Shown: piece by piece, positions 2,892 through 25,208 of the stretch | Position numbering within the stretch: position 1 is the first letter of the stretch | How the letters are laid out: every line of letters begins with the position of its first letter | Source: a virus | Length of the DNA stretch: 64,000 nt | IMG/VR virus record: IMGVR_UViG_3300045988_150292 | Span: 1-64,000 of that record | Strand: one strand, 5' to 3' | Notes under the pieces: model-generated | What the model was told of the DNA's origin: nothing | Database searches by the model: none | The model's input: the letters and a program-made list of their open reading frames with translations, nothing else | Program-made: the position numbers and the translations under genes

Positions 2892-3044
2892 ATGACGCAG
2901 CGTGAAAGGAACATAATACAGATAATCCTCAAAATGGAAGACGGTGAGCTCTGCCAAGTACTTGACCTGGCAAAAGCGGTGTCTTCTCCCGATGCGAGGA
3001 ACATGATCAACAGAATATTGGAGAAGAGAAACAATGGCAACTAA
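2892..3044 (+). CDS. Small hypothetical protein
   Basis: An internal ATG at 2892 follows the upstream stop by 1 nt (MTQRERNIIQIILKMEDGEL...). The track ORF begins at 2859. Confidence 0.4.
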   Translation: MTQRERNIIQIILKMEDGELCQVLDLAKAVSSPDARNMINRILEKRNNGN

Positions 3045-4778: not shown

Positions 4779-5162
4779 ATGGATATACAAGGAAAAATCA
4801 TCGCGGTGCTGGAGACTCGCTCCGGCGTTTCCGCAACCGGCACACAGTGGCAGGTCGCCTCTTATGTGCTTGAAACTGATGGTATGTACCCGAAGAAAAT
4901 GGTGTTCGAGGTCTACGGCCCTGACCGCATAGCGCAGATGAACATCCGGCAGGGGGAGGAACTGAAGGTGTATTTCGATGTGGATGCACATGAATGGAAC
5001 GGCAAATGGTTCAATTCCATAAAGGCATGGAAGGTGGAACGTCCCGGAGCAGGACAGACACAACAACCGGTACCACAGCAGACGGCGTTCCCAGAAGCTC
5101 CGGCGGCTCCGGCAGTAACGCAGCAGCCACCGCAGAGCGGAGACGACGACCTGCCATTTTGA
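4779..5162 (+). CDS. DUF3127-type OB-fold ssDNA-binding protein with an SSB-like acidic tail
   Basis: MDIQGKIIAVLETRSGVS..GTQWQVASYVLETDGMYPKKMVFEVYG...WFNSIKAWKV is DUF3127-like. The P/Q-rich linker ends in DDDLPF, like the SSB C-terminal tip. Confidence 0.7.
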   Translation: MDIQGKIIAVLETRSGVSATGTQWQVASYVLETDGMYPKKMVFEVYGPDRIAQMNIRQGEELKVYFDVDAHEWNGKWFNSIKAWKVERPGAGQTQQPVPQQTAFPEAPAAPAVTQQPPQSGDDDLPF

Positions 5163-8673: not shown

Positions 8674-9171
8674 ATGAACAACAAGACAATGGGCAAGGAA
8701 ATTGCCAACCCAATCCAGCGTGAACAGTTCATCAAGGACAACGCGGATGCGTGCGAGAACAAGGGTTACATGAAGAAGTATATTGGAACTAAAGAAGTGA
8801 GTGCCACACCTGCATGGCAGATTGATGGAACAGTTTACCCGAAAGATGGTGTTGTCCCAAGATCAATGAACCGCAAGGATGGCTACAAAGTGGTTTATGA
8901 AGATGGCTACGAAAGCTGGTCTCCAAAAGATGTCTTTGAGAAGGCATACAAGCCTTCAGACACAGTTCTTGACAGACTCAAAATAGAGCGTGATGAACTA
9001 AAAGAGCGCATAGAGAAAATTGAAGCTTTATTAGGAAACGGCATTTACGAAGTGGTAAAAAAGGAAGGCGGTATACCACAGGCAGTACTGCTAATCCTAC
9101 AGGATTCCTATATGACAACCTACCTGAAAGTACTGGAAACGAGAATTGACTTGATGGAAGAGGGGAAGTAA
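8674..9171 (+). CDS. Hypothetical phage protein
   Basis: 165 aa. The DGYKVVYEDGYESWSPKDVFEKAY motif is common in small phage proteins. C-terminal coiled coil. Confidence 0.55.
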   Translation: MNNKTMGKEIANPIQREQFIKDNADACENKGYMKKYIGTKEVSATPAWQIDGTVYPKDGVVPRSMNRKDGYKVVYEDGYESWSPKDVFEKAYKPSDTVLDRLKIERDELKERIEKIEALLGNGIYEVVKKEGGIPQAVLLILQDSYMTTYLKVLETRIDLMEEGK

Positions 9172-9190
9172 CTAACCATCCTCTCCTTGG
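9168..9190 (+). repeat. Left copy of a ~20-nt direct repeat flanking the phosphatase cassette
   Basis: GTAACTAACCATCCTCTCCT here versus GTAACTAATCACCCTCTCCT at 9964-9983 (18/20 identical). Both start at a TAA stop codon. Confidence 0.6.
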
Positions 9191-9424
9191 TGAAATTAAG
9201 ATAATAATGAAGAAGTCGTGCTCAAATTAGATTGGTTGGCATTAGGTGTAGCCGTAAAATATCAATTACCGTTTGACAATTCACCTCAGAGCACTCTTAT
9301 GTGGAAAAGGCATCAAGCATTTAGTACACATCGAAGACCGTTAATGAGTGAAAGGCTCATAAAGACTCCAATCCGTTATTATTTTGGTGACAGCTGGGGG
9401 AGGATTTAAAATAGAAGAACAGTT

Positions 9425-9958
9425 ATGAATATAATGTTTGACAAGAGTGTGCTATTTATTGATTTGGATGGTACTTTAATCAAAACGGCATCAGGGAGTA
9501 CATTCCCCAAAGATTGCACTGACTTCATTATCCGAAAAGAAGTATTGGATAAAATCGCAGAAAAACTGCCAAATTTGTTTTGGATAGGTATCGTTACCAA
9601 TCAAGGAGGAATACCACAATTCATTTCAAAAAGAGACTTTAAAGCAAAGTTTGAAAGTATTATTCAATTTGTTGGCTCATATCTAGGAAGTAGAATCCCA
9701 AAGCTTTGTATTGAAGCAAAAGTTTTCGTAACGGGGTTGTACTGCTATTCTATAAAAGAGAGCGATAAGTACAGAAAACCGAATACAGGAATGCTAGAAA
9801 GGCTTCAAAAAGATTTTGGTGAATATTCTAAAAGTTCAATGATAATGATAGGTGATGCTAGTGGGAAGCCTGGAGACTTCTCTGACTCAGATAAGAAATG
9901 TGCTGAGAATTTTGGTATTGACTATATTGATGTTGAAGATTTTTTGAAACCATGGTAA
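9425..9958 (+). CDS. HAD-family polynucleotide/DNA 3'-phosphatase (PNK3P-like)
   Basis: FIDLDGTLIKTASGSTFPKD (motif I), IVTNQGGI (motif II), YRKPNTGM, and MIGDASGKPGDFSDSDKKCAENFGIDYIDVEDF match the PNKP phosphatase-domain pattern. Confidence 0.75.
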   Translation: MNIMFDKSVLFIDLDGTLIKTASGSTFPKDCTDFIIRKEVLDKIAEKLPNLFWIGIVTNQGGIPQFISKRDFKAKFESIIQFVGSYLGSRIPKLCIEAKVFVTGLYCYSIKESDKYRKPNTGMLERLQKDFGEYSKSSMIMIGDASGKPGDFSDSDKKCAENFGIDYIDVEDFLKPW

Positions 9959-9962
9959 CAGC

Positions 9963-9999
9963 GGTAACTAATCACCCTCTCCTGTAAAAGGTAGAGGGT
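9963..9999 (+). repeat. Right copy of the direct repeat plus a hairpin
   Basis: GGTAACTAATCACCCTCTCCTG, then the stem ACCCTCT(9973-9979)/AGAGGGT(9993-9999). Confidence 0.55.
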
Positions 10000-10223: not shown

Positions 10224-10523
10224 ATGACAATTATCCTTATTATTGGAATGCTATATATGGTTGTGGGTCTTTTAATAAGTCTCATTTGTTTATTCTTAAA
10301 ACGATATGATAGTATAGGTTGGACAATAGCTCTCACCCTTAATATAGCAGGAATATTAAATGTTATAATTTATCATGCTACTGAAGCCCCATCAGCCCTT
10401 GATGATGAAGGCAAAATCTCCTTTGCCCACATCGTAGACCCTAACATAGCAAAATACTACAAAGGTTGGAATATCCCAGGCGTGCTTTATTGGATGCCAT
10501 TTAGTAACCCTTTAGAATTTTAA
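10224..10523 (+). CDS. Small membrane protein
   Basis: 99 aa with two or three hydrophobic helices. Starts 2 nt after the previous stop. Confidence 0.5.
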   Translation: MTIILIIGMLYMVVGLLISLICLFLKRYDSIGWTIALTLNIAGILNVIIYHATEAPSALDDEGKISFAHIVDPNIAKYYKGWNIPGVLYWMPFSNPLEF

Positions 10524-10527
10524 GATT

Positions 10528-10692
10528 ATGACAAACGTCGAATTAATAAAAAAACTACTGACAACAGTAGAAAATCGTGGTGTGCTTCCTGTTTATATAG
10601 ACGCAGCAATACTCATAGATTATAGATGTGGCGAAGATTCTGTTAAAGATGTTGTATGCCATGATGAATATGTAACACTTTATAATTATTAG
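10528..10692 (+). CDS. Small protein, tandem paralog A (54 aa; below the ORF-track cutoff)
   Basis: MTNVELIKKLLTTVENRGVLPVYIDAAILIDYRCGEDSVKDVVCHDEYVTLYNY*. Similar to the next ORF. Confidence 0.55.
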   Translation: MTNVELIKKLLTTVENRGVLPVYIDAAILIDYRCGEDSVKDVVCHDEYVTLYNY

Positions 10693-10695
10693 AAT

Positions 10696-10848
10696 ATGAC
10701 GAATGTAGAGTTGATAGAAGAATTGCAGAAATCAGTAGGCAAATATGGGGAACTGCCTGTTAAAATAGACATAGAAGCCCTCAAAAATGAAATGTCTATT
10801 GAAGATGTTAGATGTAATGGTGTGTATGTAACAATTTATGATTATTAG
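10696..10848 (+). CDS. Small protein, tandem paralog B (50 aa)
   Basis: MTNVELIEELQKSVGKYGELPVKIDIEALKNEMSIEDVRCNGVYVTIYDY*. Shares the same TTAGAATATG start context. Confidence 0.55.
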   Translation: MTNVELIEELQKSVGKYGELPVKIDIEALKNEMSIEDVRCNGVYVTIYDY

Positions 10849-13110: not shown

Positions 13111-13503
13111 ATGCTTATGAACAAATCACACTTAGCACTCCTCCGCTCTAACTACGAGAACGCCTGCAATGCCTACCTCAAAGCCTTCTGCCAAAAGCAC
13201 GGCTTCTCCGAAGCCTACTGGGTAGCCGACAGGGTGGGCGAGATAGCTGACTGCAACGAGACCTACACCTTCGAAATGTCAACCATCCGTACCGACATCG
13301 ACGAGGACGCACCCGAAGAGCAACTCCTTGAGTGGCATTCCTACACTGAGGAAGCCGACCTCTTCAACCTCACCACCCCCAACTTCCATCACTGGCTACA
13401 CGGATGCCCACGCTCCTCTCCCGAGGAACTGCAGAAGCTAAGGGACATGCGGCAGGAGTTTGAAGACAAGATAAAGGAAATCAACAAACACAACTCATTC
13501 TAA
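13111..13503 (+). CDS. Hypothetical protein (last gene of the + block)
   Basis: 130-aa ORF, followed by a convergent junction. Confidence 0.5.
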   Translation: MLMNKSHLALLRSNYENACNAYLKAFCQKHGFSEAYWVADRVGEIADCNETYTFEMSTIRTDIDEDAPEEQLLEWHSYTEEADLFNLTTPNFHHWLHGCPRSSPEELQKLRDMRQEFEDKIKEINKHNSF

Positions 13504-13549
13504 AAAAATCCTCATCAAGTTGTCTGATGCAGCCTGGTGGGGATTTTTT

Positions 13550-14050
13550 TCATTTGCGCCCTTTTCTGATGAAGAGCTTTCCGATCCTCCAACACTGACG
13601 CGTAGCAAAAGCATACACATACAGGGCACAGGTGAGGATGATTAGGATAAGGTCGGCGTCATACATCTCGTTGGTAATAAGCCACGATCCGTAAAACATC
13701 CTTATCACGTTCACACCAATAAGATATACGAACGGAATCCTGTATATCCAGCACAACTGGTAGAAATAGCTTGCCGGCATCATCATCAACACAGGGAATA
13801 CATAGGTCATGCAATACAGGTACACCAGACTACTTTCATTCTCTTCTATGTTCACTATAATCTCACGTGGGTTGGAATGAAAATCGAACACTCCATACCA
13901 ATGTGCGAGCATTATTACCAACGGGACGTATTTCAACGCCCATTCATACCACCAGAACGTTCCTTTGTTCAGTGGTAGCTTGTTTTCCGACTCTTCCATA
14001 AACTTACGGTTTGGTTGGTTATCTTTAGATTTTATTATTTTTCTTTGCAA
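13550..14050 (-). CDS. Multi-pass membrane protein
   Basis: 166 aa with four or more hydrophobic helices. Confidence 0.5.
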   Translation of the reverse strand: MQRKIIKSKDNQPNRKFMEESENKLPLNKGTFWWYEWALKYVPLVIMLAHWYGVFDFHSNPREIIVNIEENESSLVYLYCMTYVFPVLMMMPASYFYQLCWIYRIPFVYLIGVNVIRMFYGSWLITNEMYDADLILIILTCALYVYAFATRQCWRIGKLFIRKGRK

Positions 14051-14139
14051 ATTTAGCCATTAAAACTAAAGAATTGTTATTTCTGTTAGCGTTGGTTAAC
14101 AGATTTAACAACCCTTAGTGATAGAAATGACATATCGTT

Positions 14140-14496
14140 TCATTTCCTCATGGCATTCATATAATGCCATATTTTGCTACCCTCCAGTCCGTAGTCCTCA
14201 TCATTGAAGTAGAACTCATAGGCTGCTTTCAGTATCTCCCCGTCAGAGAGCACGGCGCAGGTGTCGGCATAGAAGCTGTTATATGCCACAAACTTGTCCC
14301 ACTCCGTTGTCCCTTCAGGAAAATCCAGTCCCTTTGTGGCTTCCTCTATCATCAGTGCGCTCCATTTCGGTTCTGTGTGTGTCACTCCGTCCTTGTCGGT
14401 ATATTTCAGCCCCTTCATCGCCATTTCTGCGGTTTTCTCACAAAAATGCGGCTCATGTGCCATTTTTACGGCATTTAAGAATATATACATCACCAT
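14140..14496 (-). CDS. Hypothetical protein
   Basis: 118-aa ORF. An alternative start is at 14463. Confidence 0.5.
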   Translation of the reverse strand: MVMYIFLNAVKMAHEPHFCEKTAEMAMKGLKYTDKDGVTHTEPKWSALMIEEATKGLDFPEGTTEWDKFVAYNSFYADTCAVLSDGEILKAAYEFYFNDEDYGLEGSKIWHYMNAMRK

Positions 14497-14507
14497 AGTC
14501 CTTCCTC

Positions 14508-14984
14508 CTAACTTAGTTTATCCACAAGCGTCCTCACAAGTCCTTTCAGCTCGTTCATGCCGCTTTCAAGCGAACCGATGCGCTCGTCCTGTTTCTTTTT
14601 CTCGGCAAACGCGGGATTCCACTCTTCTTTTATCCTCTCGCAGTCCTTCTTTCTCGCCTCGTGCTTTGCCACACTGTTTATGATGTCGGTGCTCTCGGCC
14701 TCCAGTGCGTCCACTTCTTTGAGTATTCCTTCCCTGTCTACGCTGAGTATCGTGTTTCCTGCGCTCACAACCGAAGAGTCTGCCGGCATGGTGTAGGTGT
14801 TGTTTGCTCCGTTGGTCTCCACGGTCACATCAACAACCGTTGACGATGCCGTTCCGCCGCCGCTGTATTGCGGAAAGCGTGGCTGGGTAATCGCCGTCAC
14901 CCTGCCTATCTCTTCTCTCAGTCCCTCGTCACCCTTGTGCAGCATATACACCGGGTGTCCTTTCTTTATGTCCTTGAACGTCAT
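14508..14984 (-). CDS. Hypothetical protein
   Basis: 158-aa ORF with a C-terminal coiled coil. Confidence 0.5.
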   Translation of the reverse strand: MTFKDIKKGHPVYMLHKGDEGLREEIGRVTAITQPRFPQYSGGGTASSTVVDVTVETNGANNTYTMPADSSVVSAGNTILSVDREGILKEVDALEAESTDIINSVAKHEARKKDCERIKEEWNPAFAEKKKQDERIGSLESGMNELKGLVRTLVDKLS

Positions 14985-15010
14985 AATCTCTGTCTTTTTG
15001 GTTATACAAT

Positions 15011-15041
15011 AAAAGCGGCATCCCGACTTGTGGAATACCGC
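15011..15041. repeat. Cassette-boundary element, copy A
   Basis: AAAAGCGGCATCCCGACTTGTGGAATACCGC is identical over 31 nt to 18096-18126. It is an imperfect inverted copy of 16194-16220. Confidence 0.85.
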
Positions 15042-15102
15042 TTTAGAATAAGGGGGAACAATGCTTTGGCACTGTTCCCTGAATCCCTAATTTGTGTAAA
15101 AG

Positions 15103-16134
15103 TTATAATTTTTCTGGAGGATTTTTCTTATTCCGTTTCAATTTCTTTATATCTTCATCAAGTTCTTTTAAACTCTCGATCTTCCTTTGTTGCTTTAATT
15201 TCTCCTTATATTCCTTATATACAAGTTGGACTTTCTTTTTAGCCATTTCCTTACTGATTTTCCCTTTGGTTTCAAGGATATTCTTCCTGTTCATCGTAAG
15301 AATAACATTCAGGCTCTTCTCCCAGTCTGCCATCATCATTGGTATGTGATTATAAGCCTGAGCTTCGGCAAAAGAAAGATATTGGTCAACTATGTATTTC
15401 AGATTCTCAATTTCCTCTTTATTTAGATAGTTCTTGCCTATACCAACATCAGAAGCTTTGACTATACCCTCATTCTCCGTAGAGGTAAGCCCCATCATTG
15501 GTAGTTCTGCATTTGCACGATAATATACGAGTTCAGCAGCCGTATGACCACTTACCGCCCATATTAATTTATTCTGAATAGCAGCAAAGAACTCTATGGT
15601 TTTCCTATCGTCTTTGTCATAGTCCGCACTGAGTTTGTAGATGTCCTTTATTTGCTGATAAAAGACCCTTTCAGATATACGTATCTGCCTAATGCGACTG
15701 AGTAACTCTTTGAAATAAGTCAAAGACTGCCCTTTGGTGAATCGCTTGTCATCAAGTACATATCCCTTGACAAGATACTCTTTCAAAGTTTTTCTTGCCC
15801 ATATCCTGAATTGAGTGGCACGCTTGCTATTAACACGGAAACCAACAGACACTATAGCATCAAGATTATAGAACTTGACTTTTCTTTTGACGCTACGTTC
15901 CCCTTCTTGACGAACAACTAAAGAATCCTTAGTAGTTGCTTTTTCATCAAGTTCGCCTTCGTTAAAGACATTCCTTAGATGGATAATCACATTCTCTTTG
16001 GTACAGCCGAATAAATCTGCCATACCCTTTTGTGTAAGCCATATAGTTTCGTTGATAGCGTCTATTTGTACGTTTATTTCGCCGTTTTCGCCACTAAATA
16101 TGACTATTTCTCCGAAATTATTATTTTCTTCCAT
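15103..16134 (-). CDS. rhuM: RhuM-family protein
   Basis: IWLTQKGMADLFGCTKENVIIHLRNVF...FYNLDAIVSVGFRVNSKRATQFRIWARKTLKEYLVKGYVLDDKRF is the RhuM-family signature. The start is moved to MEENNNF at 16134, downstream of a -7 box. Confidence 0.75.
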   Translation of the reverse strand: MEENNNFGEIVIFSGENGEINVQIDAINETIWLTQKGMADLFGCTKENVIIHLRNVFNEGELDEKATTKDSLVVRQEGERSVKRKVKFYNLDAIVSVGFRVNSKRATQFRIWARKTLKEYLVKGYVLDDKRFTKGQSLTYFKELLSRIRQIRISERVFYQQIKDIYKLSADYDKDDRKTIEFFAAIQNKLIWAVSGHTAAELVYYRANAELPMMGLTSTENEGIVKASDVGIGKNYLNKEEIENLKYIVDQYLSFAEAQAYNHIPMMMADWEKSLNVILTMNRKNILETKGKISKEMAKKKVQLVYKEYKEKLKQQRKIESLKELDEDIKKLKRNKKNPPEKL

Positions 16135-16156
16135 ATCATTATAACTTTTACATATG

Positions 16157-16164
16157 CAAATATA
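16157..16164 (-). promoter_or_regulatory. Bacteroidota-type -7 box (TATATTTG) for rhuM
   Basis: The reverse complement of CAAATATA matches TAnnTTTG, 22 nt upstream of the ATG. Confidence 0.45.
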
Positions 16165-16193
16165 CTGCAAAATAATGATACTGCAAAATTCAA

Positions 16194-16220
16194 GCGGTAT
16201 TCCAACAAGTCAAAGAACGC
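16194..16220. repeat. Cassette-boundary element, copy C (inverted relative to A)
   Basis: GCGGTATTCCAACAAGTCAAAGAACGC. Its reverse complement shares GACTTGT(T)GGAATACCGC with copy A. It is 26/27 identical to 18953-18979. Confidence 0.8.
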
Positions 16221-16244
16221 TTCATTTCCTTTTCTTTCCTAAAC

Positions 16245-16290
16245 GGAAGAGCCTCCGCACGGACTTCTTCTCCGTAGGCGCAGGCTCCTC
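16245..16290 (-). terminator. Long imperfect hairpin downstream of the 16297 gene
   Basis: GAGCCTCCGCACGGA...TCCGTAGGCGCAGGCTC. The inner stem ACGGA/TCCGT is perfect. Confidence 0.4.
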
Positions 16291-16296
16291 CTTAAT

Positions 16297-17118
16297 TCAT
16301 GTGGTCGCTGTAGTGGCCTTGGTTCCCAATGCCGCTATCAAGGTGGCATTCTGTCTCTGCTGCGACAGCTCAAGCTCTGCCCTGTTCAGGCGAAGCTGCA
16401 GGTCCTCCTGCCAGTGTCCGTTCAGCGTGTCGATGATGCGCTGTGTGTTGGCGTTAGCGTTGGTCTTCAGATCACAAGCCATCTGGCTCATCTGGAATCC
16501 CACGTTGGAGAAGCCTCTCTCCAGTCCTGTGTTCGTGTAGCTGAAACCCTGTTGCATTCCGTTCACGATGTCCTTCTGACCGAGCTGATTCTCATAACCC
16601 ATCTTGATGATGTTCTGCTGTGTCTGGCAGCAGCAGTCCTTCAACTGCTGTACGATGTTCATGTCACCGAGGTTCACGGCGTTGATGACTCTTTCTGCCG
16701 AAAAGCCCACCTGACCGCTAAGACGGTCGATGCCGCCACGAACATCACATATAGCAGAATTGAGAGTGTTGAAATCACAATTCAAGTTACCTGCCAAACG
16801 GTCAATAGCATTATTGTTACCCTTAATGGCATCCATCAGTAGATTTGAGTTCTGGTTGTCTGCCATCTGGGAACGGATAGCGTTTAGCTGACCTTGGATT
16901 TCAGCATTTTGAACTTTACTTCCATCGTCGCCCCACATCTTACGGGCAAACATCATCCATACAAGATAAACGAAGGGGTTATTCCATTGTCCGCCCATAC
17001 CTCCGTTCATCATCGCCGCCATAGCCATAGGGTCGTTACCCTTGTTTGCCATCGCAGCCCATGCCAGAGCGTCATTGTTCCTCGCTCCGTCACAACATAT
17101 AATCTTCTCTGCTTCCAT
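16297..17118 (-). CDS. Hypothetical N/Q-rich protein
   Basis: The start is moved to MEAEKIICCDG at 17118. 273 aa, Asn/Gln/Gly-rich. No family recognised. Confidence 0.5.
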   Translation of the reverse strand: MEAEKIICCDGARNNDALAWAAMANKGNDPMAMAAMMNGGMGGQWNNPFVYLVWMMFARKMWGDDGSKVQNAEIQGQLNAIRSQMADNQNSNLLMDAIKGNNNAIDRLAGNLNCDFNTLNSAICDVRGGIDRLSGQVGFSAERVINAVNLGDMNIVQQLKDCCCQTQQNIIKMGYENQLGQKDIVNGMQQGFSYTNTGLERGFSNVGFQMSQMACDLKTNANANTQRIIDTLNGHWQEDLQLRLNRAELELSQQRQNATLIAALGTKATTATT

Positions 17119-17165
17119 AATAAAAATGTGTTTGTGTCGTTTCGTTCCAAAATCAGAACTTGGTG

Positions 17166-17173
17166 CAAATATA
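17166..17173 (-). promoter_or_regulatory. -7 box TATATTTG
   Basis: Reverse complement of CAAATATA, about 48 nt upstream of the ATG at 17118. Confidence 0.4.
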
Positions 17174-17331
17174 GCCAATGTTCCGCCTAAGACACAACAT
17201 TGCTTTTCGTGGCAACATCCTGCCACATTACGGCACAAAAAAACAGTCCTGCCTCCCGACAGAACTGCCCTCCTGAAAAACAATTCAATAATTACCTTAA
17301 ATTTAGAAAGAAATCGTAGTAAAATAACATA

Positions 17332-17655
17332 TCAACTTAAATGATGAAAAGTATCAAGTTCCTCTTTCGTCCATCGGCGGCTGACATCACCGACGACCTT
17401 CTTCCCTTGCGGTATCTTGCCTTCACGCCGCAGCTTGTCAAACTTGCTCCTCGACATTCCGAGATACCTCATCGCTTCGGTCTTGTTGTAGGTCTTCTCC
17501 CTGCTGCCGGCAAACATCTCCAGGCAGCTGAGAAACCTCTCGTTCTGCTCTTCCGTAGTGCTGCAACGTCCGCTGTCTATGCGGTCTATCAGCTCTTGCA
17601 GCAACGCTCGTATCATCTGTAACGTAACGCTCAAAACCGTCTCTTTATTAGCCAT
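17332..17655 (-). CDS. Helix-turn-helix DNA-binding protein (Xis/AlpA/MerR-like HTH)
   Basis: The C-terminal KTEAMRYLGMSRSKFDKLRREGKIPQGKKVVG..RRWTKEELD pattern is typical of this HTH type. Start proposed at MANKETV. Confidence 0.5.
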   Translation of the reverse strand: MANKETVLSVTLQMIRALLQELIDRIDSGRCSTTEEQNERFLSCLEMFAGSREKTYNKTEAMRYLGMSRSKFDKLRREGKIPQGKKVVGDVSRRWTKEELDTFHHLS

Positions 17656-18068
17656 AGCAAAGATAATAAAATTATTGCTAATACACAACAGATTGGCACG
17701 AAATAATCCACCTTAATCTGCTCCCATCTCCCCAGTTTCTTCTCCACAGGGAACGGCACTCTCACGGAGTCCGTCTTCATCACCGTGTCCGTCTTGTTCG
17801 TATAAATATAGTGGTCCTCATGTTCCGTCCTTACCTTGTCCTTGAACACGGTATCTCCCTTCATCCACACGCTCACACTGTCATGCACCCACACGGAATC
17901 CCTTTTGATGAAGCTGTCCGTCCTCACCTTATATTCTGTGTGATATTCCGGCACACTCACATACCTCACGCTCCTACATCCCGTCAGCAGCGTCATTAGT
18001 CCGCACAACACGCATCCTACCAAGAATGCGGCAAACAGCCTTGCAACTCTTATCATTGCCTGTTCCAT
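17631..18068 (-). CDS. Unimolecular spanin (u-spanin) candidate
   Basis: MEQAMIRVARLFAAFLVGCVLCGLMTLLTGC provides a signal peptide with lipobox LTGC. The middle is beta-rich. A C-terminal TM helix (YFVPICCVLAIILLSLLWLI) is followed by KRRF. The gene sits downstream of holin and amidase. Confidence 0.55.
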   Translation of the reverse strand: MEQAMIRVARLFAAFLVGCVLCGLMTLLTGCRSVRYVSVPEYHTEYKVRTDSFIKRDSVWVHDSVSVWMKGDTVFKDKVRTEHEDHYIYTNKTDTVMKTDSVRVPFPVEKKLGRWEQIKVDYFVPICCVLAIILLSLLWLIKRRF

Positions 18069-18095
18069 AACATTTCCCTTTCTTTTATATACAAC

Positions 18096-18126
18096 AAAAG
18101 CGGCATCCCGACTTGTGGAATACCGC
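18096..18126. repeat. Cassette-boundary element, copy B
   Basis: Identical over 31 nt to 15011-15041. Lies 27 nt upstream of the u-spanin ATG. Confidence 0.85.
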
Positions 18127-18213
18127 CTGCTTAGTGATTCACCTCGACAGATTGCCTTTGCATATCTACACGAGTGAGCTACGGACACGTAGCCTTTCAA
18201 TATGACAAAGACT

Positions 18214-18660
18214 TTATTTGACTCTTGTAACGACCCAATTCCTTGTTCTCGGGTCGTAAGAAATTGCATCTCTGAACATGTTAAGTAAAAGAAGAGCAGA
18301 ATCAACCTTGTCTGCCTTGACTTTATAAAGACCGTTTTTGTTTTCTACATGTATATCATAGTTCCGTTCTATCAAGTCAAGACGTGTCTTATATTCGGAT
18401 ATGTCGTTTATAAGGTTCGCATTTTCCTTTACAAGGCTGTCTACGGAAATCTTGTTGCCGTTCCTGTCAGAAACCATCTTCGGCTCTGATACAAGACGGG
18501 TGTAATCTTGTATGATTTCATCTTTCTGTTCTATATCTTTCCTTAATCCGTCTATATGATAGTTGCTGATAAGGAAATAAGTTACGGAAAATACAGCCGT
18601 AACTATAAACAGTAGCCAACCCAGTGAATTACTATTTTTCTTTTCCATAACCGTATTCAT
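18214..18660 (-). CDS. Type-II membrane/coiled-coil protein (cassette 2)
   Basis: 148 aa. An N-terminal TM helix (LGWLLFIVTAVFSVTYFLI) is followed by a coiled coil. AT-rich. Confidence 0.55.
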   Translation of the reverse strand: MNTVMEKKNSNSLGWLLFIVTAVFSVTYFLISNYHIDGLRKDIEQKDEIIQDYTRLVSEPKMVSDRNGNKISVDSLVKENANLINDISEYKTRLDLIERNYDIHVENKNGLYKVKADKVDSALLLLNMFRDAISYDPRTRNWVVTRVK

Positions 18661-18904
18661 TTATTATCTCAATATTCTTTTCTCTCAGCTCAAAATATTT
18701 CTCCATATATTTCTCTTTCTGTTCAAGCAATTCTTTGGTGTGTCCGTTTCTCATCTCGGTAATCTCACGTTCTTTCTTTATGTTCTCGTAATACATCCCG
18801 AGTCTGAAAGATGTAACGGCAACGGCAAGAATAAAACCGACAAGCAAAGACAATTCCTTGTGGAGGGTGTTGAACTTCTGTAAAATGCCAACCTTTCTTG
18901 TCAT
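18632..18904 (-). CDS. Small membrane/coiled-coil protein (cassette 2)
   Basis: 90 aa. A TM helix (LSLLVGFILAVAVTSF) is followed by a charged coiled coil. Confidence 0.5.
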   Translation of the reverse strand: MTRKVGILQKFNTLHKELSLLVGFILAVAVTSFRLGMYYENIKKEREITEMRNGHTKELLEQKEKYMEKYFELREKNIEIINEYGYGKEK

Positions 18905-18921
18905 CAGCTTTTATTTTCTTG

Positions 18922-18929
18922 CAAAGATA
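18922..18929 (-). promoter_or_regulatory. -7 box TATCTTTG for cassette 2
   Basis: The reverse complement of CAAAGATA matches TAnnTTTG, 17 nt upstream of the ATG at 18904. Confidence 0.45.
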
Positions 18930-18952
18930 AAGAAAATTCTTGAATAGCACAA

Positions 18953-18979
18953 GCGGTATTCCAGCAAGTCAAAGAACGC
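18953..18979. repeat. Cassette-boundary element, copy D (inverted relative to B)
   Basis: GCGGTATTCCAGCAAGTCAAAGAACGC, 26/27 identical to copy C. Confidence 0.8.
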
Positions 18980-19054
18980 CTTTTTGAAAAGCCCCTATCC
19001 TCACGGACCGAGGCTTGAAAAAATTAACTAACACTTAAAACTATGAAGAAAAAA

Positions 19055-19489
19055 CTAAATATCCTTATATTCCTCCACCGCGTTGAAGCAAGGACAGCTC
19101 TTCTCCCATTTCTTCGGTGTGTCCTCTCCCCAGATGCTGCGGTGCCCCATTATCCTTGCGGCAGGGTACTTCTTGTGCAGTATGCCAAGCAGCTTCCTCA
19201 GTGTCGCTTTCTGCGCAGGAGTCCTGTTGTCAACTGCCACAATCTTCTTGTTCGGTCGCTCTATTCCTCCCACATAAGCCACATTGATGGCAGTGGAATT
19301 GTAGCCCTTCACTCCATTGCTCACCTCTTCCACTGCGAGCATCTGATGTACGCCTCCGTCAGCAGTCACTACATAGTGATAGCCCGGCTGTTTCCATCCT
19401 TTCGCCTTGAACTCCGCCCAAAGCTCCTTCGTTCCCCAGTTCTGGTTGCTTGCCGTGCAATGCACGAAAATCCTTTCTATCTTTCTCAT
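19055..19489 (-). CDS. N-acetylmuramoyl-L-alanine amidase endolysin (Amidase_2/PGRP type)
   Basis: IFVHCTAS..., GYHYVV..DG, NSTAINVAYVGG and a C-terminal CPCF pattern, as in T7-lysozyme-type amidases. Start proposed at 19489, 1 nt after the holin stop. Confidence 0.75.
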   Translation of the reverse strand: MRKIERIFVHCTASNQNWGTKELWAEFKAKGWKQPGYHYVVTADGGVHQMLAVEEVSNGVKGYNSTAINVAYVGGIERPNKKIVAVDNRTPAQKATLRKLLGILHKKYPAARIMGHRSIWGEDTPKKWEKSCPCFNAVEEYKDI

Positions 19490-19490
19490 T

Positions 19491-19994
19491 TTAATTCTGT
19501 TTTTTGTCATCTTCTTCCTCAAGTGCCTCCTCGATCGCATCGCCTACGTCATTGTTGCGCTTGCGAATAAGGCAGATGATGAATTTCTTTATACTCAGTT
19601 TGTTTGTCACTCCGTGCAGGGCGCAGATATGCCCCACGATGCTGTCCACTTCCCAGATACACCCGAAGCCGAGTCCCACCGCCGCCGTTGTCACGTGGTT
19701 GGCGATGCCCAGCGGCTCGAAGATGCCCAGACCGAAGAATGTTCCAAGCAGCAGGTAGCCGATGTAGTCCATGAACTTGTTACAGGTTCGTCTTCCTGCT
19801 CTGGAAAATCTGAAATGCTCCTTCTTCTGAAGGCTCTCGCTCAGTCCGTACCAGAAGTCCGCCACTATCAGCACTGCTATCAGTATCAGCATCCACCGCA
19901 GGTCATACACTACGCCCAGTGCTTCCTTCGAAAATGTTCCGCTACTTATGAACAGGAAAATCCCTCCTCTCGCCAGTCCCTCATTCATGCGCAC
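19491..19994 (-). CDS. Holin-family membrane protein
   Basis: 167 aa with three or four TM helices and a charged C-terminal tail (EEALEEEDDKKQN). Lies immediately upstream of the endolysin. Confidence 0.6.
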   Translation of the reverse strand: MRMNEGLARGGIFLFISSGTFSKEALGVVYDLRWMLILIAVLIVADFWYGLSESLQKKEHFRFSRAGRRTCNKFMDYIGYLLLGTFFGLGIFEPLGIANHVTTAAVGLGFGCIWEVDSIVGHICALHGVTNKLSIKKFIICLIRKRNNDVGDAIEEALEEEDDKKQN

Positions 19995-20046
19995 CTCCTT
20001 TCGTTATTCTATTCATAATCTTTCTCATTCAATTCCATTTATAAGG

Positions 20047-21143: not shown

Positions 21144-24100
21144 TTATTCGCCACGTTGCACGATTCGGCACTGGGCGGAACCTCCAGTAAACGCAGCCAT
21201 ATCATTCGACGGATAGAGAGCATACAAAGTCCGAGGCGAACAAGACACAGCATTCGCAGTGTTACGTAAACGCAAGCAAATACGGACACGCTCGTCTTTA
21301 CGACGGCTCCAATATGGATAGGATTGTGCAAAAAAACACTGCCAGCTCTGTATGTTGCCACCATTTGCAATTTTGTAAGGAGTAAAGCCGAGGCGGTCTT
21401 GTGTATATCCTTCTGAGAGGATAGGAGGACCGAAGGTTCCCACCTTGGGATATAGAGACTCAAAGCTGAAGGTTCCGAGGTTCGCCTTGGTGTATGTATT
21501 TTCGTCCACCCATTTCCTCTGATCTGTCTCCAGGTAGAAATCCACATAGGCGTCTCTTAACTGCTCCGGATTATATCTGCCTCCAGTATCGAGTTTGTTG
21601 GTTCCCACCATCTCCAAACCGCCACCCCAATAGGCATAGATGTCACCACTGAGATTCATGCCGTGTATCAGACTCATTCTTAACGACAGTTCGAGGTCGT
21701 AGGTCACTTGTGTGCTGGCATCCTTGTAGCCTTTACAGGTGCCTTTCTTGATACGGTAAACCTTGCAGTTCATCACTCCGTCAGAAAGTTTTTCTGCACC
21801 GGGGATATTCTTATATCGGTAGACAGCTCCGTATGCATCAAAATCCGTATCTTCTGCCACACCGAACTCCGTAGCCCACGATGCTGCCATCTGGCTCTCC
21901 ATGCACTGTTCCTTCGGTCTGCCATAGTTGATGTAATAACTGAAGTTGTTCGTGTCCATATTGGCATTCGCTCCAAAGTACGCTTGTCTGCCCAAAATGG
22001 AATAAACCCAGTCTTGGGTGCCCTGCTCCTTGGTGCGCACTCCGCCGTTCTCTCTCCAATCGTTTTCGTTTTTTACGTTGTCGTTGCTCGATATTCCCGA
22101 ACCGAAGAGTGCGTTGGCGTGAAGATTTTTCGTACCATAGAGCAATTCCATACAAATGATGAATACATTCAGAGAGTGATAGCCACCCTCGGCAAACGGC
22201 ACCGGCGATTGTGAATTGACATTAGACACACGGGCTACAGCCTTATTCATTGCCTGGGAAATATCACTGCTTCTCGGATATGTGCGTCCGTCGTCTACGA
22301 ACATCGAGCATACATCCTTTCCATATTGGCTTACGTGGTTCATCGTGTTCGTATCACCCACGGCATAGGTATAGAAAAAATTCCTTGCATTGCCGCCCAA
22401 CGTAGTAATAGGACATGGCGACATTGCAGTGCCGAGAAATGGAAATCTGCCGGTGTCTATACCATCATACTTCACGGGTTTTTTGAATATTCCTGTCAGC
22501 ATCTTGCCGCTGTCGCCTGTCTGACGGTCTACAGGATAGAGGGTGTCGTATCTGCCTATCATCACCGAATACTTCGTCTCCGTGGTCTCCCATGGCAACA
22601 ACTGGCGCACCTTGTTACCCTCGCCATCGTATAGGTCAACAAGTCCCAGGGAATTATAAACCTCCGCTGCGTCGTAAGGGTGCTCACCTGCCTTATCGGT
22701 TACAATAACACCATTTTTCAGCGTCAATGGAGTAGTGTGCTCAGCATCGGTATAGAGCTGCACGTCACACGCAGCACGCATCTCCTCCGTAATGCCCACG
22801 GTAGGTGCGAACGCTCCACTCTTGAAGCGGAAGAGATTGTTACCCATCAGCTCACCCACAGGGTGCGTAGCCTCTCCTGTGTTGTCGGTGTGGTCGATGA
22901 GATAGAAGTGCCAGTCGGATAAGATTTCCTTGTTGCCTTTGCAGTTCTTGAAATTTGGATCACCTGTCTTCTCGTCGTTCTCGCCGACATAATAGTCGGC
23001 CATGCCCTCCATCTCGCTTCTCAGAGTCTCGATGTTTGCCTTCGTTTCGTCCACCTTCTGATTAATCTTGCTGAGCTGCGTACACATACTCGCCGTCATT
23101 CCGTCCCTCACAACCTTCATCGTAAGGTCGGCAACGTCAACCTTATAGCTCACCACCACCTTGATGGCACTGCGAGACTGAAAGTTTGACACAAAGCGAC
23201 AATATCCGTCCTCTGGAAGTTCAGCATCGGCATTGAGCAGAGTCATCGGCTGATAGCTGCCCACGGTAGTTTGGAATGTAGCAGGCAGATAATCCACGGT
23301 CTGCCCTGTCTGGTCGTCGGTAATCACGCAGCTCTCTACAGCCGCAGCATCAGCATCGTATGCGTAGGTGTAAGAATGAGTCTTGCCATCGTATGTAGCC
23401 TTGGCAGAGGCTATGCGTCCCTTCTCGTCGTATGTGTATGTATATTCAATCGCCCTACGCTCAATCTTGTCGATATACTCGGCAAACACGCACACATTTC
23501 CGTCTGTAGCCCCCGGCTTGAACAGGTATTCGTTGCCAAGCTCGGCAGTAAACACCGCAATCGCCCAGCCCTGCTTGCTCACCTTCACACCGTCGGCAGA
23601 AATAGCCACGTTCTGCTCCGAAGGAGTGAGCACAATGTCAGGACGCTCCGAATACGGACCAAGGCTCTTTTTCATTCTCGCTACATCGCTCACATCACCT
23701 AAATCGGCAGTCTTCACTGTTCCTGTGCGGTCGGTAACGGTCAGCACATGGTCGTCGTCCATCACGGCGTTCACCTTGCTTGCTCCGTTGGCGGCGGCAT
23801 TGGCATTAGCCGTTGCCGTGTCGGCATTTGTCGCTGCCGTGTCCGCCTTGCCCGTAGCAGTGTAAGCAGCAGCAGTAGCGGCTTCGGCAGCAGCCACCGC
23901 AGCATCATTGGCAGCCTTGTTATCTTTCGCAGCCTGCTCACGCTTTGCCTCTGCACGCTGTCGTGAGAGCTCGGCAAGTACACGTTCGGTTTCGGCGGAC
24001 ACTCTTGTCGTCTCGTTCTCCTGTCTCGCCTGTTCCGAAGTGGTGCGCTCCCTTTCGGCTGCCGTGCGTTCCTGTTCAGCTGATTTGCGCTCTGTTTCAG

Positions 24101-25208
24101 CAGTTATGCGCTCGGTCTCATTCTTGCCACGTTCGGTTTCAGCGGTCACTCTTGCAGTTTCGTTCTCCTGTCTTGTCTGTTCAGAAGCAGTGCGTTCCTG
24201 CTCGGTAGCCACACGTGAGGCTTCGCTGTCCTTCCTTGTCTGCTCTGCCGTGGTGCGTTCCTGCTCGGCATTGTCCCTGCCAGTCTCAGCCTGCTTGCGC
24301 AGCGTTTCGGCAGCGTCGCGCTTGCCCTCAGCGTCTGCTCTCACATTTTCGTGCTGACGGCGCTCCTGCTCGGCATCATTGCGGTCGTTCTCTGCCGTAT
24401 CACGGAGCTTTTCGGTTGCCTTGCGGCTTGTCTCCGCATCCTCACGCTCTTTCTCGTTGCGGATGCGGTCTGCCTCGTCACTCTTGCGCATCTTCTCCGC
24501 TTTCTCACGTGATGTCTCGTTTGCATCGCGGCGCTGCTCGGCATCGCTTCTGCCGGTCTCGGCGCTCGCTCTGTTCTCCTCTGCGGTCTTGCGCAGGTTC
24601 TCGTCGCCCTGCCTTGCCTGTTCCGCCTTGTCGCGTGCGGTTTCGGCAGTAGTGCGCTCCTGCTCTGAGGTGATACGACCTTCTTCCGCCTCCTGTCTTG
24701 CCGTTTCCGCTGCCTTGCGTTCCGCTTCTGCTTCCGCTACATCTGCGGCGATGTCGGTGGCTGGCTTGCGCAGAAAAGCGTACCAGTCTGCGAGTGTTCC
24801 CGTGTTGCCCTCACTGAGCCACACTTCGTATGCCGAAAGTCCGGGCTTGCCTATGAGCACGTTGCTCTGTAGACTCACCATAAAATCCTCGAACTCCACA
24901 TCGTCGTCGCTCTCCTCGCAGGAATGTGCCACGAGTATGAATGCCTGGTCTGCACAGACTGTCCTACGTGGTGCTCCTTCGGTAGCGTCTTCGAGTATCA
25001 CCGCCCTTGCTCCCGTCATGCGCTGCATGGAAGCAGGGTAGACAAAGCTCACCACGCAGCCTTCCACTGTGAAGGTCGTGATTTCTTCTTTCCTATACGC
25101 CGACCTCAGGTAGAGCTTCAGCGCCTTCCCTTCGAGGCTCACGGCTTGTCCGTCCGTCTTCACCTCCCATCTGACATTGATGTCATTGCCGATTCTTACC
25201 TTTCTCAT
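21144..25208 (-). CDS. Tail fibre / receptor-binding protein (1354 aa)
   Basis: The N-terminal Ig-like part resembles BppU_N. The GKPGLSAYEVWLSEGNTGTLADWYAFL motif is common in fibres. A long heptad coiled coil is followed by a ~900-aa C-terminal globular part. Confidence 0.65.
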   Translation of the reverse strand: MRKVRIGNDINVRWEVKTDGQAVSLEGKALKLYLRSAYRKEEITTFTVEGCVVSFVYPASMQRMTGARAVILEDATEGAPRRTVCADQAFILVAHSCEESDDDVEFEDFMVSLQSNVLIGKPGLSAYEVWLSEGNTGTLADWYAFLRKPATDIAADVAEAEAERKAAETARQEAEEGRITSEQERTTAETARDKAEQARQGDENLRKTAEENRASAETGRSDAEQRRDANETSREKAEKMRKSDEADRIRNEKEREDAETSRKATEKLRDTAENDRNDAEQERRQHENVRADAEGKRDAAETLRKQAETGRDNAEQERTTAEQTRKDSEASRVATEQERTASEQTRQENETARVTAETERGKNETERITAETERKSAEQERTAAERERTTSEQARQENETTRVSAETERVLAELSRQRAEAKREQAAKDNKAANDAAVAAAEAATAAAYTATGKADTAATNADTATANANAAANGASKVNAVMDDDHVLTVTDRTGTVKTADLGDVSDVARMKKSLGPYSERPDIVLTPSEQNVAISADGVKVSKQGWAIAVFTAELGNEYLFKPGATDGNVCVFAEYIDKIERRAIEYTYTYDEKGRIASAKATYDGKTHSYTYAYDADAAAVESCVITDDQTGQTVDYLPATFQTTVGSYQPMTLLNADAELPEDGYCRFVSNFQSRSAIKVVVSYKVDVADLTMKVVRDGMTASMCTQLSKINQKVDETKANIETLRSEMEGMADYYVGENDEKTGDPNFKNCKGNKEILSDWHFYLIDHTDNTGEATHPVGELMGNNLFRFKSGAFAPTVGITEEMRAACDVQLYTDAEHTTPLTLKNGVIVTDKAGEHPYDAAEVYNSLGLVDLYDGEGNKVRQLLPWETTETKYSVMIGRYDTLYPVDRQTGDSGKMLTGIFKKPVKYDGIDTGRFPFLGTAMSPCPITTLGGNARNFFYTYAVGDTNTMNHVSQYGKDVCSMFVDDGRTYPRSSDISQAMNKAVARVSNVNSQSPVPFAEGGYHSLNVFIICMELLYGTKNLHANALFGSGISSNDNVKNENDWRENGGVRTKEQGTQDWVYSILGRQAYFGANANMDTNNFSYYINYGRPKEQCMESQMAASWATEFGVAEDTDFDAYGAVYRYKNIPGAEKLSDGVMNCKVYRIKKGTCKGYKDASTQVTYDLELSLRMSLIHGMNLSGDIYAYWGGGLEMVGTNKLDTGGRYNPEQLRDAYVDFYLETDQRKWVDENTYTKANLGTFSFESLYPKVGTFGPPILSEGYTQDRLGFTPYKIANGGNIQSWQCFFAQSYPYWSRRKDERVRICLRLRNTANAVSCSPRTLYALYPSNDMAAFTGGSAQCRIVQRGE
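23949..24731 (-). repeat. About 35 consecutive 21-nt (heptad) coding repeats, [A/S/T/N/D]E-x-x-R-x-x
   Basis: AETARDK AEQARQG DENLRKT AEENRAS AETGRSD ... AETERVL, spanning roughly aa 160-420 of the fibre. Confidence 0.85.

Follow-up and report, generated by a model that had tools for sequence, protein, structure and literature searches.

Two different cargoes in this viral sequence lie between the same pair of short inverted elements, which raises the question of what these elements are and how unrelated genes came to be placed between them. In the window (the whole stretch of 64,000 nt that was analysed), the left element of the first site, AAAAGCGGCATCCCGACTTGTGGAATACCGC, lies at 15011-15041 and the right element, GCGGTATTCCAACAAGTCAAAGAACGC, at 16194-16220. 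The first-pass annotation described the two as imperfect inverted repeats that also bracket a second cassette, and this description is borne out. At the first site, GACTTGT(T)GGAATACCGCTT pairs with AAGCGGTATTCCACAAGTC; a second copy of the left element, at 18096-18126, is part of a longer match of 39 nt (15003-15041 versus 18088-18126, 38/39 identical); and the right element is repeated at 18953-18979 with 26/27 identities, in a match that extends to 30 nt (16191-16220 versus 18950-18979). The repetition is far above chance: shuffled versions of the window gave an expectation of 0.10 occurrences of the 17-nt core with up to three mismatches, against two found on the plus strand; the right-hand copies consist of the core plus one inserted base and were thus missed by the scan. 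As argued below from comparison of assembled contigs, the elements are probably the 5' and 3' boundary modules of self-contained accessory-gene cassettes that are exchanged by homologous recombination at the modules.

All genes of this region are on the minus strand and the cassettes are read in that direction, with a 5' boundary module (R') ahead of the cargo and a 3' boundary module (L') behind it (Table 1). Three parts make up R': the invariant R'5 motif (GCGTTCTTTGAC), then a loop, then the R'3 arm, whose sequence complements the 5' arm of L'.

Table 1 Features of the two cassette slots and their resident neighbours in the window.
Feature	Position	Strand	Sequence, match or remark
Resident gene downstream of slot 1, 158 aa	14508-14984	minus	phrog_28898
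L' of slot 1, 3' boundary module	15003-15043	minus	AAGCGGTATTCC-ACAAGTC-GGGATGCCGC-TTTTATTGTATA
Small hairpin of rhuM, part of cargo	15054-15079	minus	GGGAACAGTGCCAAAGCATTGTTCCC
rhuM cargo gene, 343 aa	15103-16134	minus	PF13310
Predicted cassette promoter, slot 1	16157-16187	minus	consensus match
R' of slot 1, 5' boundary module	16189-16223	minus	GAA-GCGTTCTTTGAC-TTGTT-GGAATACCGC-TTGAA
Resident hairpin after 273-aa gene, outside cassette	16244-16290	minus	also in relatives without cassette
Resident gene upstream of slot 1, 273 aa	16297-17118	minus	phrog_16490
Resident lipoprotein-like gene downstream of slot 2	17631-18068	minus	
L' of slot 2	18088-18126	minus	same terminator, tail TTTTGTTGTATA
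Slot-2 cargo, two small membrane-type ORFs	18214-18904	minus	ORFs 18632-18904 (90 aa), 18214-18660 (148 aa)
Predicted slot-2 promoter box	18922-18929	minus	TATCTTTG
R' of slot 2	18950-18979	minus	GCGTTCTTTGACTTGCTGGAATACCGCTTG
Resident amidase endolysin upstream of slot 2	19055-19540	minus	PF01510 E = 1.6e-15; phrog_822 E = 3e-42

At slot 1, R' is followed by a predicted promoter with a -7 box, TATATTTG, that matches TAnnTTTG at 16157-16164 (minus strand) and a -33 TTTG at 16184-16187, separated by a 19-nt spacer; TAnnTTTG with TTTG is the Bacteroidetes promoter consensus. The cargo gene had been assigned to the rhuM family, and its product is indeed a full-length RhuM protein (PF13310, E = 1.1e-97, 326.7 bits versus a cut-off of 33.7, profile positions 1-250/252), with a further match to PDC-S05, a candidate defence family of PADLOC (E = 2.9e-126). 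The insert is AT-rich, as first noted, with a GC content of 0.36 versus ~0.47–0.50 around it. It was said to hold one promoter box and the rhuM gene only; box and gene are present, but the insert also has a small hairpin, which is 99% conserved along with the cargo at the other slot of a related phage (L177). Between the end of L' and the next start codon lie ~18 nt. The 158-aa and 273-aa resident genes are direct neighbours, 70–135 nt apart, in most relatives and 1312 nt apart in the window. L071 and L076 retain the resident hairpin outside the cassette, with compensating changes. At slot 2, the next gene starts ~21 nt after L', and the cassette is 99.9% identical in L185, while L061–L065 are without both the cassette and its two boundary elements.

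Comparison with close relatives supports the earlier argument that two cargoes between the same boundaries point to insertion or exchange. Over 1 kb per side, the slot-1 flanks of L185 match the window at 98.2% and 98.8% identity, yet the cargo differs; identity ends after GGAATACCG and restarts at AAGCGGTATTCC. At slot 1, the window carries rhuM; L185, L161, and L100 carry a Panacea pair (toxin–antitoxin); L191 has KilA-N, of which decayed remnants are left in L061 and L062; and L068 has an HTH pair. The same cargo is also found at different slots: the rhuM cassette at slot 1 of the window and slot 2 of L177 is 99.4% identical over 1155 nt, with a chimeric right junction in L177 (TTTTATTGTATA joined to TAAAAG), and the Panacea cassettes of slots 1 and 2 are 94.3% identical. 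An empty site with a single element between the two resident genes had been predicted, and was seen in L064 and L065 as GCGTCTTTGACTTGTGG[G/A]ATGCCGCTTTT. The arm of this element in L065 is an R'/L' hybrid and the R'5 motif carries a deletion in both empty slots. Such a solo hybrid element fits the product of a deletion between repeated arms, judging from these alignments; only two solo landing-pad elements were found among the matches listed. These comparisons show that the boundaries remain in place at a slot and that what lies between them can be replaced, lost, or copied into a second slot. The breakpoints map to the inner edges of the boundary modules and are ragged where promoters are shared.

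The first-pass annotation also proposed a survey of what lies between inverted pairs. Using blastn-short to find copies of the boundary elements, we detected at least 154 cassettes of at least 150 nt in public data, which fall into at least 55 cargo groups, with at least 12 groups in a single slot. Cargo consists of one to three AT-rich genes, mostly toxin–antitoxin or candidate anti-phage genes, and includes the PADLOC candidates PDC-S05, PDC-S22, and PDC-M04A. In the first set of cassettes, GC content of the cargo groups was 0.29–0.39 versus ~0.47–0.55 in the late region, and every full-size group had TAnnTTTG within 8–174 nt of R'. Several cargoes bring their own terminators, and some of these are strong. 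Cassettes are single and at dispersed slots, each with a predicted promoter box, and no tandem arrays were seen. No cargo group was found in two boundary types among the cassettes listed, where only rhuM and Panacea occupy two slots, and these slots are of one boundary type. The unit occurs in at least five different genome contexts with identical outer ends. Carriers are Prevotella/Bacteroidales gut phages distantly related to LoVEphage. In the GenBank phage collection, the mini-cassette query matched only one unannotated record, MT835742.1, and there is thus no annotated precedent in that collection; a megablast of window positions 13500–20000 against GenBank phages returned no match. Many 16-nt core matches in viral contigs were dismissed as chance, being located inside coding sequence with no L' partner.

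The orientation of these units bears on two mobile-element explanations. In every R'..L' unit detected, R' precedes L' on the same strand, and the main cargo ORFs were in sense in 27/27 groups of the first set and in 11/11 sampled groups of the enlarged set. Bacteroidales are rich in invertible DNA switches, and inverted repeats that flank a promoter-bearing segment are what an invertase would flip. We nevertheless reject an inverton, given this constant orientation, and the ~80 window ORFs and ~28 cargo proteins tested revealed no integrase, transposase, or invertase domain; this explanation is barely credible.

Terminal inverted repeats of a non-autonomous transposon, mobilised in trans by a host transposase, were among the candidates first put forward and are now disfavoured. 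The imperfect inverted repeats of 17–23 nt (up to ~40 nt counting A/T tracts) and the presence of the unit in several genome contexts would suit such an element. However, neither slot 1 nor the other contexts showed a target-site duplication, and the possible AAAAG at slot 2 lies beside a downstream flank of another allele, in which the lipoprotein signal peptide also differs, the flanks being replaced in this comparison. In the empty slot, one half of either end remains where a clean target would be expected; symmetry is best conserved at the inner rather than the outer ends; and the interior is different in every copy. With orientation always that of the flanking genes, no cargo across boundary types, and no transposase in the window or the tested cargo proteins, we consider a transposon very improbable.

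The slot-1 L' is the top terminator-like site in a scan of the window, and its 13-bp hairpin and U tract (13 pairs, then TTTTATTG) identify it as a predicted intrinsic (factor-independent) terminator. Folding energy of the sense RNA was -19.2 kcal/mol (z = -4.8) and only -11.5 for the antisense, the fold being strand-specific through G.U pairs, and the helix was paired in 100% of 250 cells representing 25 distinct copies. Of the original candidates, a hotspot at a recombination site or split terminator fits best. In R', the 12-nt R'5 motif (GCGTTCTTTGAC) is invariant in 68/68 copies and in 14 more with variant arms, whichever search anchor was used. Outside the motif, R' varies in step with the L' of its own cassette; its short loop and ~10-nt arm are the reverse complement of the L' 5' arm and loop. 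R':L' pairing was found in 89% of cells versus ≤54% in slid controls, four pairs were changed on both sides, and the observed score was reached by 1/500 shuffles. Across nine boundary types, pairing with the own partner averaged -24.3 kcal/mol versus -14.4 kcal/mol for cross pairs, and the RNA of the mini-cassette folds into a single R':L' helix (-48 kcal/mol, z = -6.5). The overall layout of core, inverse core, and core corresponds to R'3, L'5, and L'3.

Other roles for these sequences were tried and set aside. R' does not behave as a hairpin of its own or as an antisense terminator (sense -6.8 kcal/mol, z = 0.2; antisense z = -0.13). R'5 is not a fixed promoter element, as its distance to the first TAnnTTTG spreads over 30–200 nt. 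On a reading of the sequences, conservation of R'5 for pairing with the L' 3' arm relies on G.U pairs in the window type and fails in the GGAATTACCG type, and the likeness of R'5 to the downstream gene start (ATGACGTTCAAGGAC) is judged a coincidence, as it is missing from other contexts. A search with Rfam 15 covariance models gave two chance-level matches inside cargo genes and none on R' or L'.

A cassette consists, in order, of R', a predicted host-type promoter of its own, AT-rich genes, and the L' hairpin with its U tract, and such cassettes are probably exchanged in co-infection by homologous recombination through the 30–40 nt modules. Recombination could be aided by the host RecA or by the phage's own RecE-like exonucleases, encoded in the window at 3034-3777 and 3825-4763, and its SSB, encoded at 4779-5159. 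Cargo loss would result from slippage between two arms that are direct repeats, the GGAATACCGC of R' and the GGGATGCCGC of L', leaving a single hybrid element as in the empty slots, and L' would halt transcripts from the cassette promoter short of neighbouring lysis and virion genes. Several observations count against this account. Inverted copies of the boundary, kept across boundary types, are superfluous for homologous recombination, which also leaves the constancy of 12 nt in R' without explanation. The first arrival of the unit in at least five genome contexts with the same outer ends is beyond its reach, solo landing-pad elements number only two among the matches listed, and cargo-borne terminators mean that L' is not strictly needed as a terminator.

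A role at the RNA level would account for the kept inverted repeat. R':L' complementarity might act on RNA as a conditional terminator or an RNase III processing stem, a less likely possibility that is compatible with homologous exchange. Transcripts from upstream would carry R', which would capture the L' 5' arm, prevent the terminator hairpin, and allow read-through into resident genes, or else the long duplex would be cleaved by RNase III; transcripts from the cassette promoter would lack R' and stop at L'. The co-variation, partner preference, strand specificity, and mini-cassette fold described above all speak for this. The cassette promoter is always downstream of R', and no promoter box lies between L' and the closely following gene at either slot. 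In an equilibrium ensemble, which ignores kinetics and ribosomes, R'3:L'5 pairing had a predicted probability of 1.0 and the terminator 0.0 with R' present in both window cassettes, and the terminator probability was ~1.0 without R'. On the other hand, the strong internal terminators of some cargoes lie beyond R' masking, such that read-through needs another route anyway; the long helix still adjoins the U tract and may itself terminate; and the pairing must bridge ~1 kb of translated RNA. All R'3 variants shift towards the L' 3'-arm state, so direct-repeat conversion could mimic compensation, while one boundary type has two uncompensated R'3 changes and the invariant R'5 is left unexplained. 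Speculatively, and with modest expectation, the boundary pair might form a switch that depends on promoter of origin and lets a cassette fit any operon, with GCGTTCTTTGAC as a site for an antitermination or processing factor, or a recombinase, common to several lineages.

The invariant motif could instead point to dedicated, integron-like recombination in which a phage or host enzyme reads GCGTTCTTTGAC as double strand and the L' hairpin in folded form to insert and excise cassettes. Invariance of the 12-nt motif across copies, its partial deletion in two empty slots, the same outer ends in at least five genome contexts, and the core/inverse core/core layout, which resembles integron cassette boundaries, are consistent with such an enzyme. 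Nonetheless, no recombinase domain was found among the window ORFs or cargo proteins tested, tandem arrays are absent, and the cassettes have their own promoters. A motif-directed enzyme should also permit cargo sharing across boundary types that carry the same motif, which is not seen, and breakpoints are ragged where promoters are shared. We therefore regard a dedicated enzyme as improbable and return to homologous exchange of cassettes as the preferred explanation.

The cassettes show how abundant gut Bacteroidales phages trade defence-like and toxin–antitoxin genes, through slots present in hundreds of public contigs. The 12-nt motif offers a search handle for accessory and candidate anti-phage genes in metagenomes, and it predicts safe insertion sites for engineering such phages. 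If the RNA switch were true, synthetic biology could make use of the pair as a small, naturally occurring insulator that can be bypassed.

The moron concept was reportedly developed by Juhala and Hendrix for lambdoid and other phages. A moron is an autonomous promoter–gene–terminator unit of deviant base composition that separates two genes found side by side in relatives. The cassettes show each of these three features, with promoter and terminator as consensus and fold predictions. Classical morons are not known to share boundary sequences, whereas here dozens of unrelated morons carry the same two modules.

Each integron cassette terminates in attC, an imperfect hairpin-forming site of variable sequence; such cassettes are mostly promoterless, form tandem arrays, and lie next to an attI site and the IntI tyrosine recombinase. 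The cassettes described here share the hairpin end site and the boundary arrangement, but differ in having their own promoters and in lacking an integrase (~80 window ORFs), an attI/Pc platform, arrays, and a GTTRRRY core. In lambda sib/tI retroregulation and rRNA processing stalks, RNA structure depends on the promoter of origin or on distant complementary segments, the same logic as the RNA-level alternative above, though by analogy only.

Fixed positions, conserved flanks, and swappable anti-phage or toxin–antitoxin cargo are likewise features of the defence hotspots in P2-like phages and P4-like satellites (Rousset et al. 2022, PMC9122126) and of phage diversity hotspots (bioRxiv 10.1101/2024.10.15.618418). 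Those hotspots are set by conserved flanking genes, while the slots here are set by non-coding modules of 30–40 nt at several positions and in several lineages.

PeSL (promoter-early stem-loop) cassettes are found in T4-type phages (Arbiol et al. 2010, PMC2839356; Comeau et al. 2014, PMC4122927). As in our cassettes, the motifs are short, conserved promoter/terminator sequences in intergenic regions. They mark where close phages differ by indels or replacements, flank small genes whose function is unknown or accessory, and are proposed both to serve as points of homologous exchange and to keep early transcription out of late genes. Recombination between PeSL motifs reportedly yields deletions and mini-circles. 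The PeSL and the modules described here have no sequence similarity. A PeSL is a single composite unit, with a sigma-70 early promoter overlapping or adjoining the stem-loop, in direct orientation and mostly in early hyperplastic regions of lytic Proteobacteria myoviruses. In the Bacteroidales phages, by contrast, slots are in late, lysis, and early regions, the promoter lies outside the conserved module at 30–200 nt from R', and the boundary is divided into two distinct, mutually inverted modules, a 5' motif and a 3' terminator, whose 12-nt motif is invariant while the arms co-vary.

Both boundary sequences described in the first-pass annotation, which had proposed that a rhuM gene and a second, unrelated cassette sit between the same inverted elements, lie where it placed them. 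For the right element, identity is 26/27 over the span first described and 29/30 when lengthened (16191-16220 versus 18950-18979); for the left element it is 38/39 (15003-15041 versus 18088-18126). Their 17-nt core matches twice on the plus strand of the window, compared to 0.10 matches in shuffled versions. The enclosed gene is RhuM as annotated (PF13310, E = 1.1e-97), and the insert is AT-rich (GC 0.36, surroundings about 0.47-0.50).

From about 13.5 to 44.4 kb all genes lie on the minus strand, in a block that encodes the major capsid protein, a tail fibre protein, a holin-like protein and an amidase. Read on this strand, slot 1 begins with the stop of a 273-aa gene and that gene's own hairpin, followed by the 5' boundary module R' (GAAGCGTTCTTTGACTTGTTGGAATACCGCTTGAA), a predicted promoter (TTTG-19 nt-TATATTTG), rhuM with its own small hairpin, the 3' boundary module L' (AAGCGGTATTCC ACAAGTC GGGATGCCGC TTTTATTGTATA) and, about 18 nt past L', the start codon (ATG) of the downstream gene. 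Slot 2 is flanked by the amidase and a lipoprotein-like gene and has the same layout, with two small membrane-type ORFs as cargo. L' is the top-ranked predicted terminator-like site of the region; its sense RNA has a predicted fold of -19.2 kcal/mol (z = -4.8), while the antisense reaches only -11.5 kcal/mol because two G.U pairs turn into C.A. No significant fold is predicted for R' on its own (z = 0.2). In distant relatives (intergenic regions of L071 and L076), the long hairpin that follows the 273-aa gene persists with different, compensating stem sequences, which suggests a conserved attenuator at that place. Read by eye, a TATATTTG box lies upstream of the 273-aa gene itself, so host-type promoters appear to serve at least some virion-block genes.

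Using the 273-aa protein as query, we recovered 80 related loci, in most of which the two resident genes of slot 1 are 70-135 nt apart. In the close relatives, slot 1 contains a single hybrid element, GCGTCTTTGACTTGTGG[G/A]ATGCCGCTTTTATTGTATAACC, in L064 and L065, with the R' 5' part fused to the L' 3' part; R' and L' separated by 59 nt in L062 and L063; a decayed KilA-N remnant of 253 nt in L061; an intact KilA-N gene in L191; a Panacea antitoxin with a membrane partner in L185, L161, L100 and L007; and an HTH pair in L068. Over 1 kb on either side of the slot, L185 matches the window at 98.2% and 98.8% identity, which stops directly after GGAATACCG and restarts at AAGCGGTATTCC. Slot 2 is empty and free of boundary elements in L061-L065, and in another relative, L177, it contains the window's rhuM cassette (99.4% identical), with the slot-2 variant base retained in R' and a chimeric tail. 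A Panacea cassette likewise occurs at both slots (94.3% identical), and the same boundaries recur in at least three additional genome contexts, including an early region. This comparison of assembled contigs, on which all our evidence rests, supports the earlier interpretation that cassettes are inserted or exchanged between these boundary elements, and shows a real feature. Titles of metagenome-assembled genomes suggest that the hosts are Prevotella and related Bacteroidales. Among cultured phages the closest relative is Bacteroides phage LoVEphage (terminase 56.7% identical); a term search of the LoVEphage paper gave no mention of such elements.

A first set of 77 cassettes fell into 27 cargo groups, and exact-pattern scans of the collection enlarged this to at least 154 cassettes of at least 150 nt in at least 55 groups. 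Cargo families include RhuM (PADLOC PDC-S05), KilA-N (PDC-S22), DUF3800 (PDC-M04A), many SocA/Panacea pairs, IrrE/M78 and P63C each with HTH, an SDH-type ClpP-like protease, Bro-N, NYN, a SecB-like protein, DUF1828/1829 and DUF2335; several cargoes have no family match. Main cargo ORFs are sense-oriented in all groups examined, a TAnnTTTG box (predicted promoter) lies near R' in nearly all full-size cargoes, and cargo GC is about 0.29-0.39.

In an alignment of 25 distinct R'/L' pairs (A1), every cell of the L' helix is paired (100%), with A/G variation in the 3' arm, and the loop and arm of R' pair with the 5' arm and loop of L' in 89% of cells (slid controls ≤54%). Four R':L' base pairs are altered on both sides, and the observed score was matched in 1 of 500 shuffles, a count rather than a probability. 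With only the R' 5' part as anchor, a scan matched at least 120 further viral contigs with other arm sequences (GGAATTACCG, GGAATCACCG, GGATTACCG, GGAACACCG, GGGATTGTAG, GGGGAGTG), each type with its own matching hairpin and T tract 0.35-2.3 kb downstream. Among the matches listed, 123 R' copies are followed by sequence long enough to judge, and 117 of these have a partner hairpin; controls were noisy (28/123 for shuffled queries, 24/67 for upstream searches), the latter perhaps inflated by L' hairpins of neighbouring cassettes. Across nine boundary types, own-partner duplexes average -24.3 kcal/mol versus -14.4 for cross pairs. In the reverse scan, with one L' type as anchor, 82/84 listed matches have R' upstream, and all 82 have GCGTTCTTTGAC intact; the motif thus does not vary, whereas the arm changes along with L'. 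In the empty slot 1 of L064 and L065, the motif is short of one T.

In the distant relatives L129 and L081, a solo motif copy ((A)GCGTTCTTTGAC / ACGTTCTTTGAC) without an L' partner occurs 56-66 nt upstream of the 273-aa gene's TATCTTTG promoter box; further solo copies occur in L210, L215, L257, L259, L271, L262, L277 and L313. An unrelated viral contig, L019, has a perfect hairpin (GCGGTATTCCGGCAAGTCCGGAATACCGC) with a T tract; this hairpin has the arm sequence in common but lacks an R' partner, and appears to be an ordinary terminator.

Folded as an equilibrium ensemble, ignoring kinetics and ribosomes, a transcript with R' is predicted to have the L' 5' arm captured (P = 1.0) and no terminator hairpin, and one from the cassette promoter to form the terminator (P about 1.0). 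These two states, set by the presence or absence of R', would fit an RNA-level role in which resident genes are read through the cassette and its own transcripts stop. We consider this role rather unlikely, given strong internal terminators in some cargoes, a long R':L' helix still adjoining the U tract, and the need for pairing over a translated stretch of 1 kb; conversion from the L' 3' arm could also produce the R' arm variants. Alternatively, the complementarity may act as a DNA palindrome that stimulates recombination, or a factor may recognise the complementary pair.

Among the matches listed, no cargo group spans two boundary types, and only the rhuM and Panacea groups occur at two slots, slots 1 and 2 being of one boundary type. 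Such confinement is predicted by homology-limited exchange and not by a motif-directed enzyme. The chimeric L177 junction and promoter sequences common to different cassettes fit crossovers inside the modules. The window encodes RecE-like exonucleases and SSB; no integrase, transposase or invertase domain was detected in about 80 window ORFs, nor any recombinase domain in the cargo proteins tested. Slippage between GGAATACCGC and GGGATGCCGC, direct-repeat arms that the inverted repeat would juxtapose, is expected to give the solo hybrid element. Based on this confinement, the L177 junction, the RecE-like and SSB genes, the lack of recombinase matches and the solo element, cassettes probably move via homologous recombination at the boundary modules, a reading that does not account for the unit's first arrival in each context.

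In an insert of another kind, direct repeats (TAACTAA[C/T]CA[T/C]CCTCTCCT) flank a polynucleotide kinase 3'-phosphatase gene and duplicate the 5' half of a hairpin, CCTCTCC...GGAGAGG; three relatives (L163, L175, L187) have an R'/L' cassette in its place. A perfect 20-nt inverted repeat (ATTAGGTTTTTCAGAACCTA / TAGGTTCTGAAAAACCTAAT, 261 nt between arms) at the start of a DnaD-like replication initiation gene, beside very AT-rich sequence, may be origin-related. Many plus-strand early genes share a recurring leader of 27-32 nt (roughly TAACCnTTTAAAAnnTTAGAATTATGA) whose final bases are their start codon (repeat families D2, D4, D7, D12). Fifty further window ORFs gave single matches to MutS domain I, a crAss001_48-related protein, DpnD/PcfM, dUTPase and DUF4376.

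Positions of features in the window and, where named, in related or unrelated contigs
Feature	Position	Strand	Detail
20-nt inverted repeat	565-584, 846-865		
DnaD-like gene	602-1582		
Non-R'/L' insert	9170-9990		repeats about 9170-9190 and 9966-9990
3'-phosphatase gene	9425-9958		PF08645, E = 4.7e-28
Leader copies	10500-10531, 10668-10699, 56895-56921, 57216-57242, 58421-58447, 58847-58873, 60478-60504, 62794-62822	plus	
Slot 1 L', R'	15003-15043, 16189-16223		
Hairpin after 273-aa gene	16244-16290		
TATATTTG box of 273-aa gene	about 17150-17165	minus	
Slot 2 L', R'	18088-18126, 18950-18979		
1354-aa ORF	21144-25208		
Diverged direct repeats	23981-24723		within 1354-aa ORF; spacings 63 and 147 nt
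Giant ORF after 1354-aa ORF	25229-30727		1832 aa
Second giant ORF	31818-38390		2190 aa
Major capsid protein	41722-42900	minus	
D5-like primase	52498-54042		
N6 methylase	61509-62183		
Solo motif, L129	5862-5873		
Solo motif, L081	about 5873		
Hairpin, L019	161-195		

We found no equivalent in Rfam or the GenBank phage collection. In how they work, these cassettes resemble morons, defence hotspots and the PeSL cassettes known from T4-type phages. Unlike those systems, they are bounded by two dissimilar modules in inverted relation, with an invariant 12-nt motif and co-varying arms, and in several lineages of Bacteroidales phages they occupy the late, lysis and early regions.
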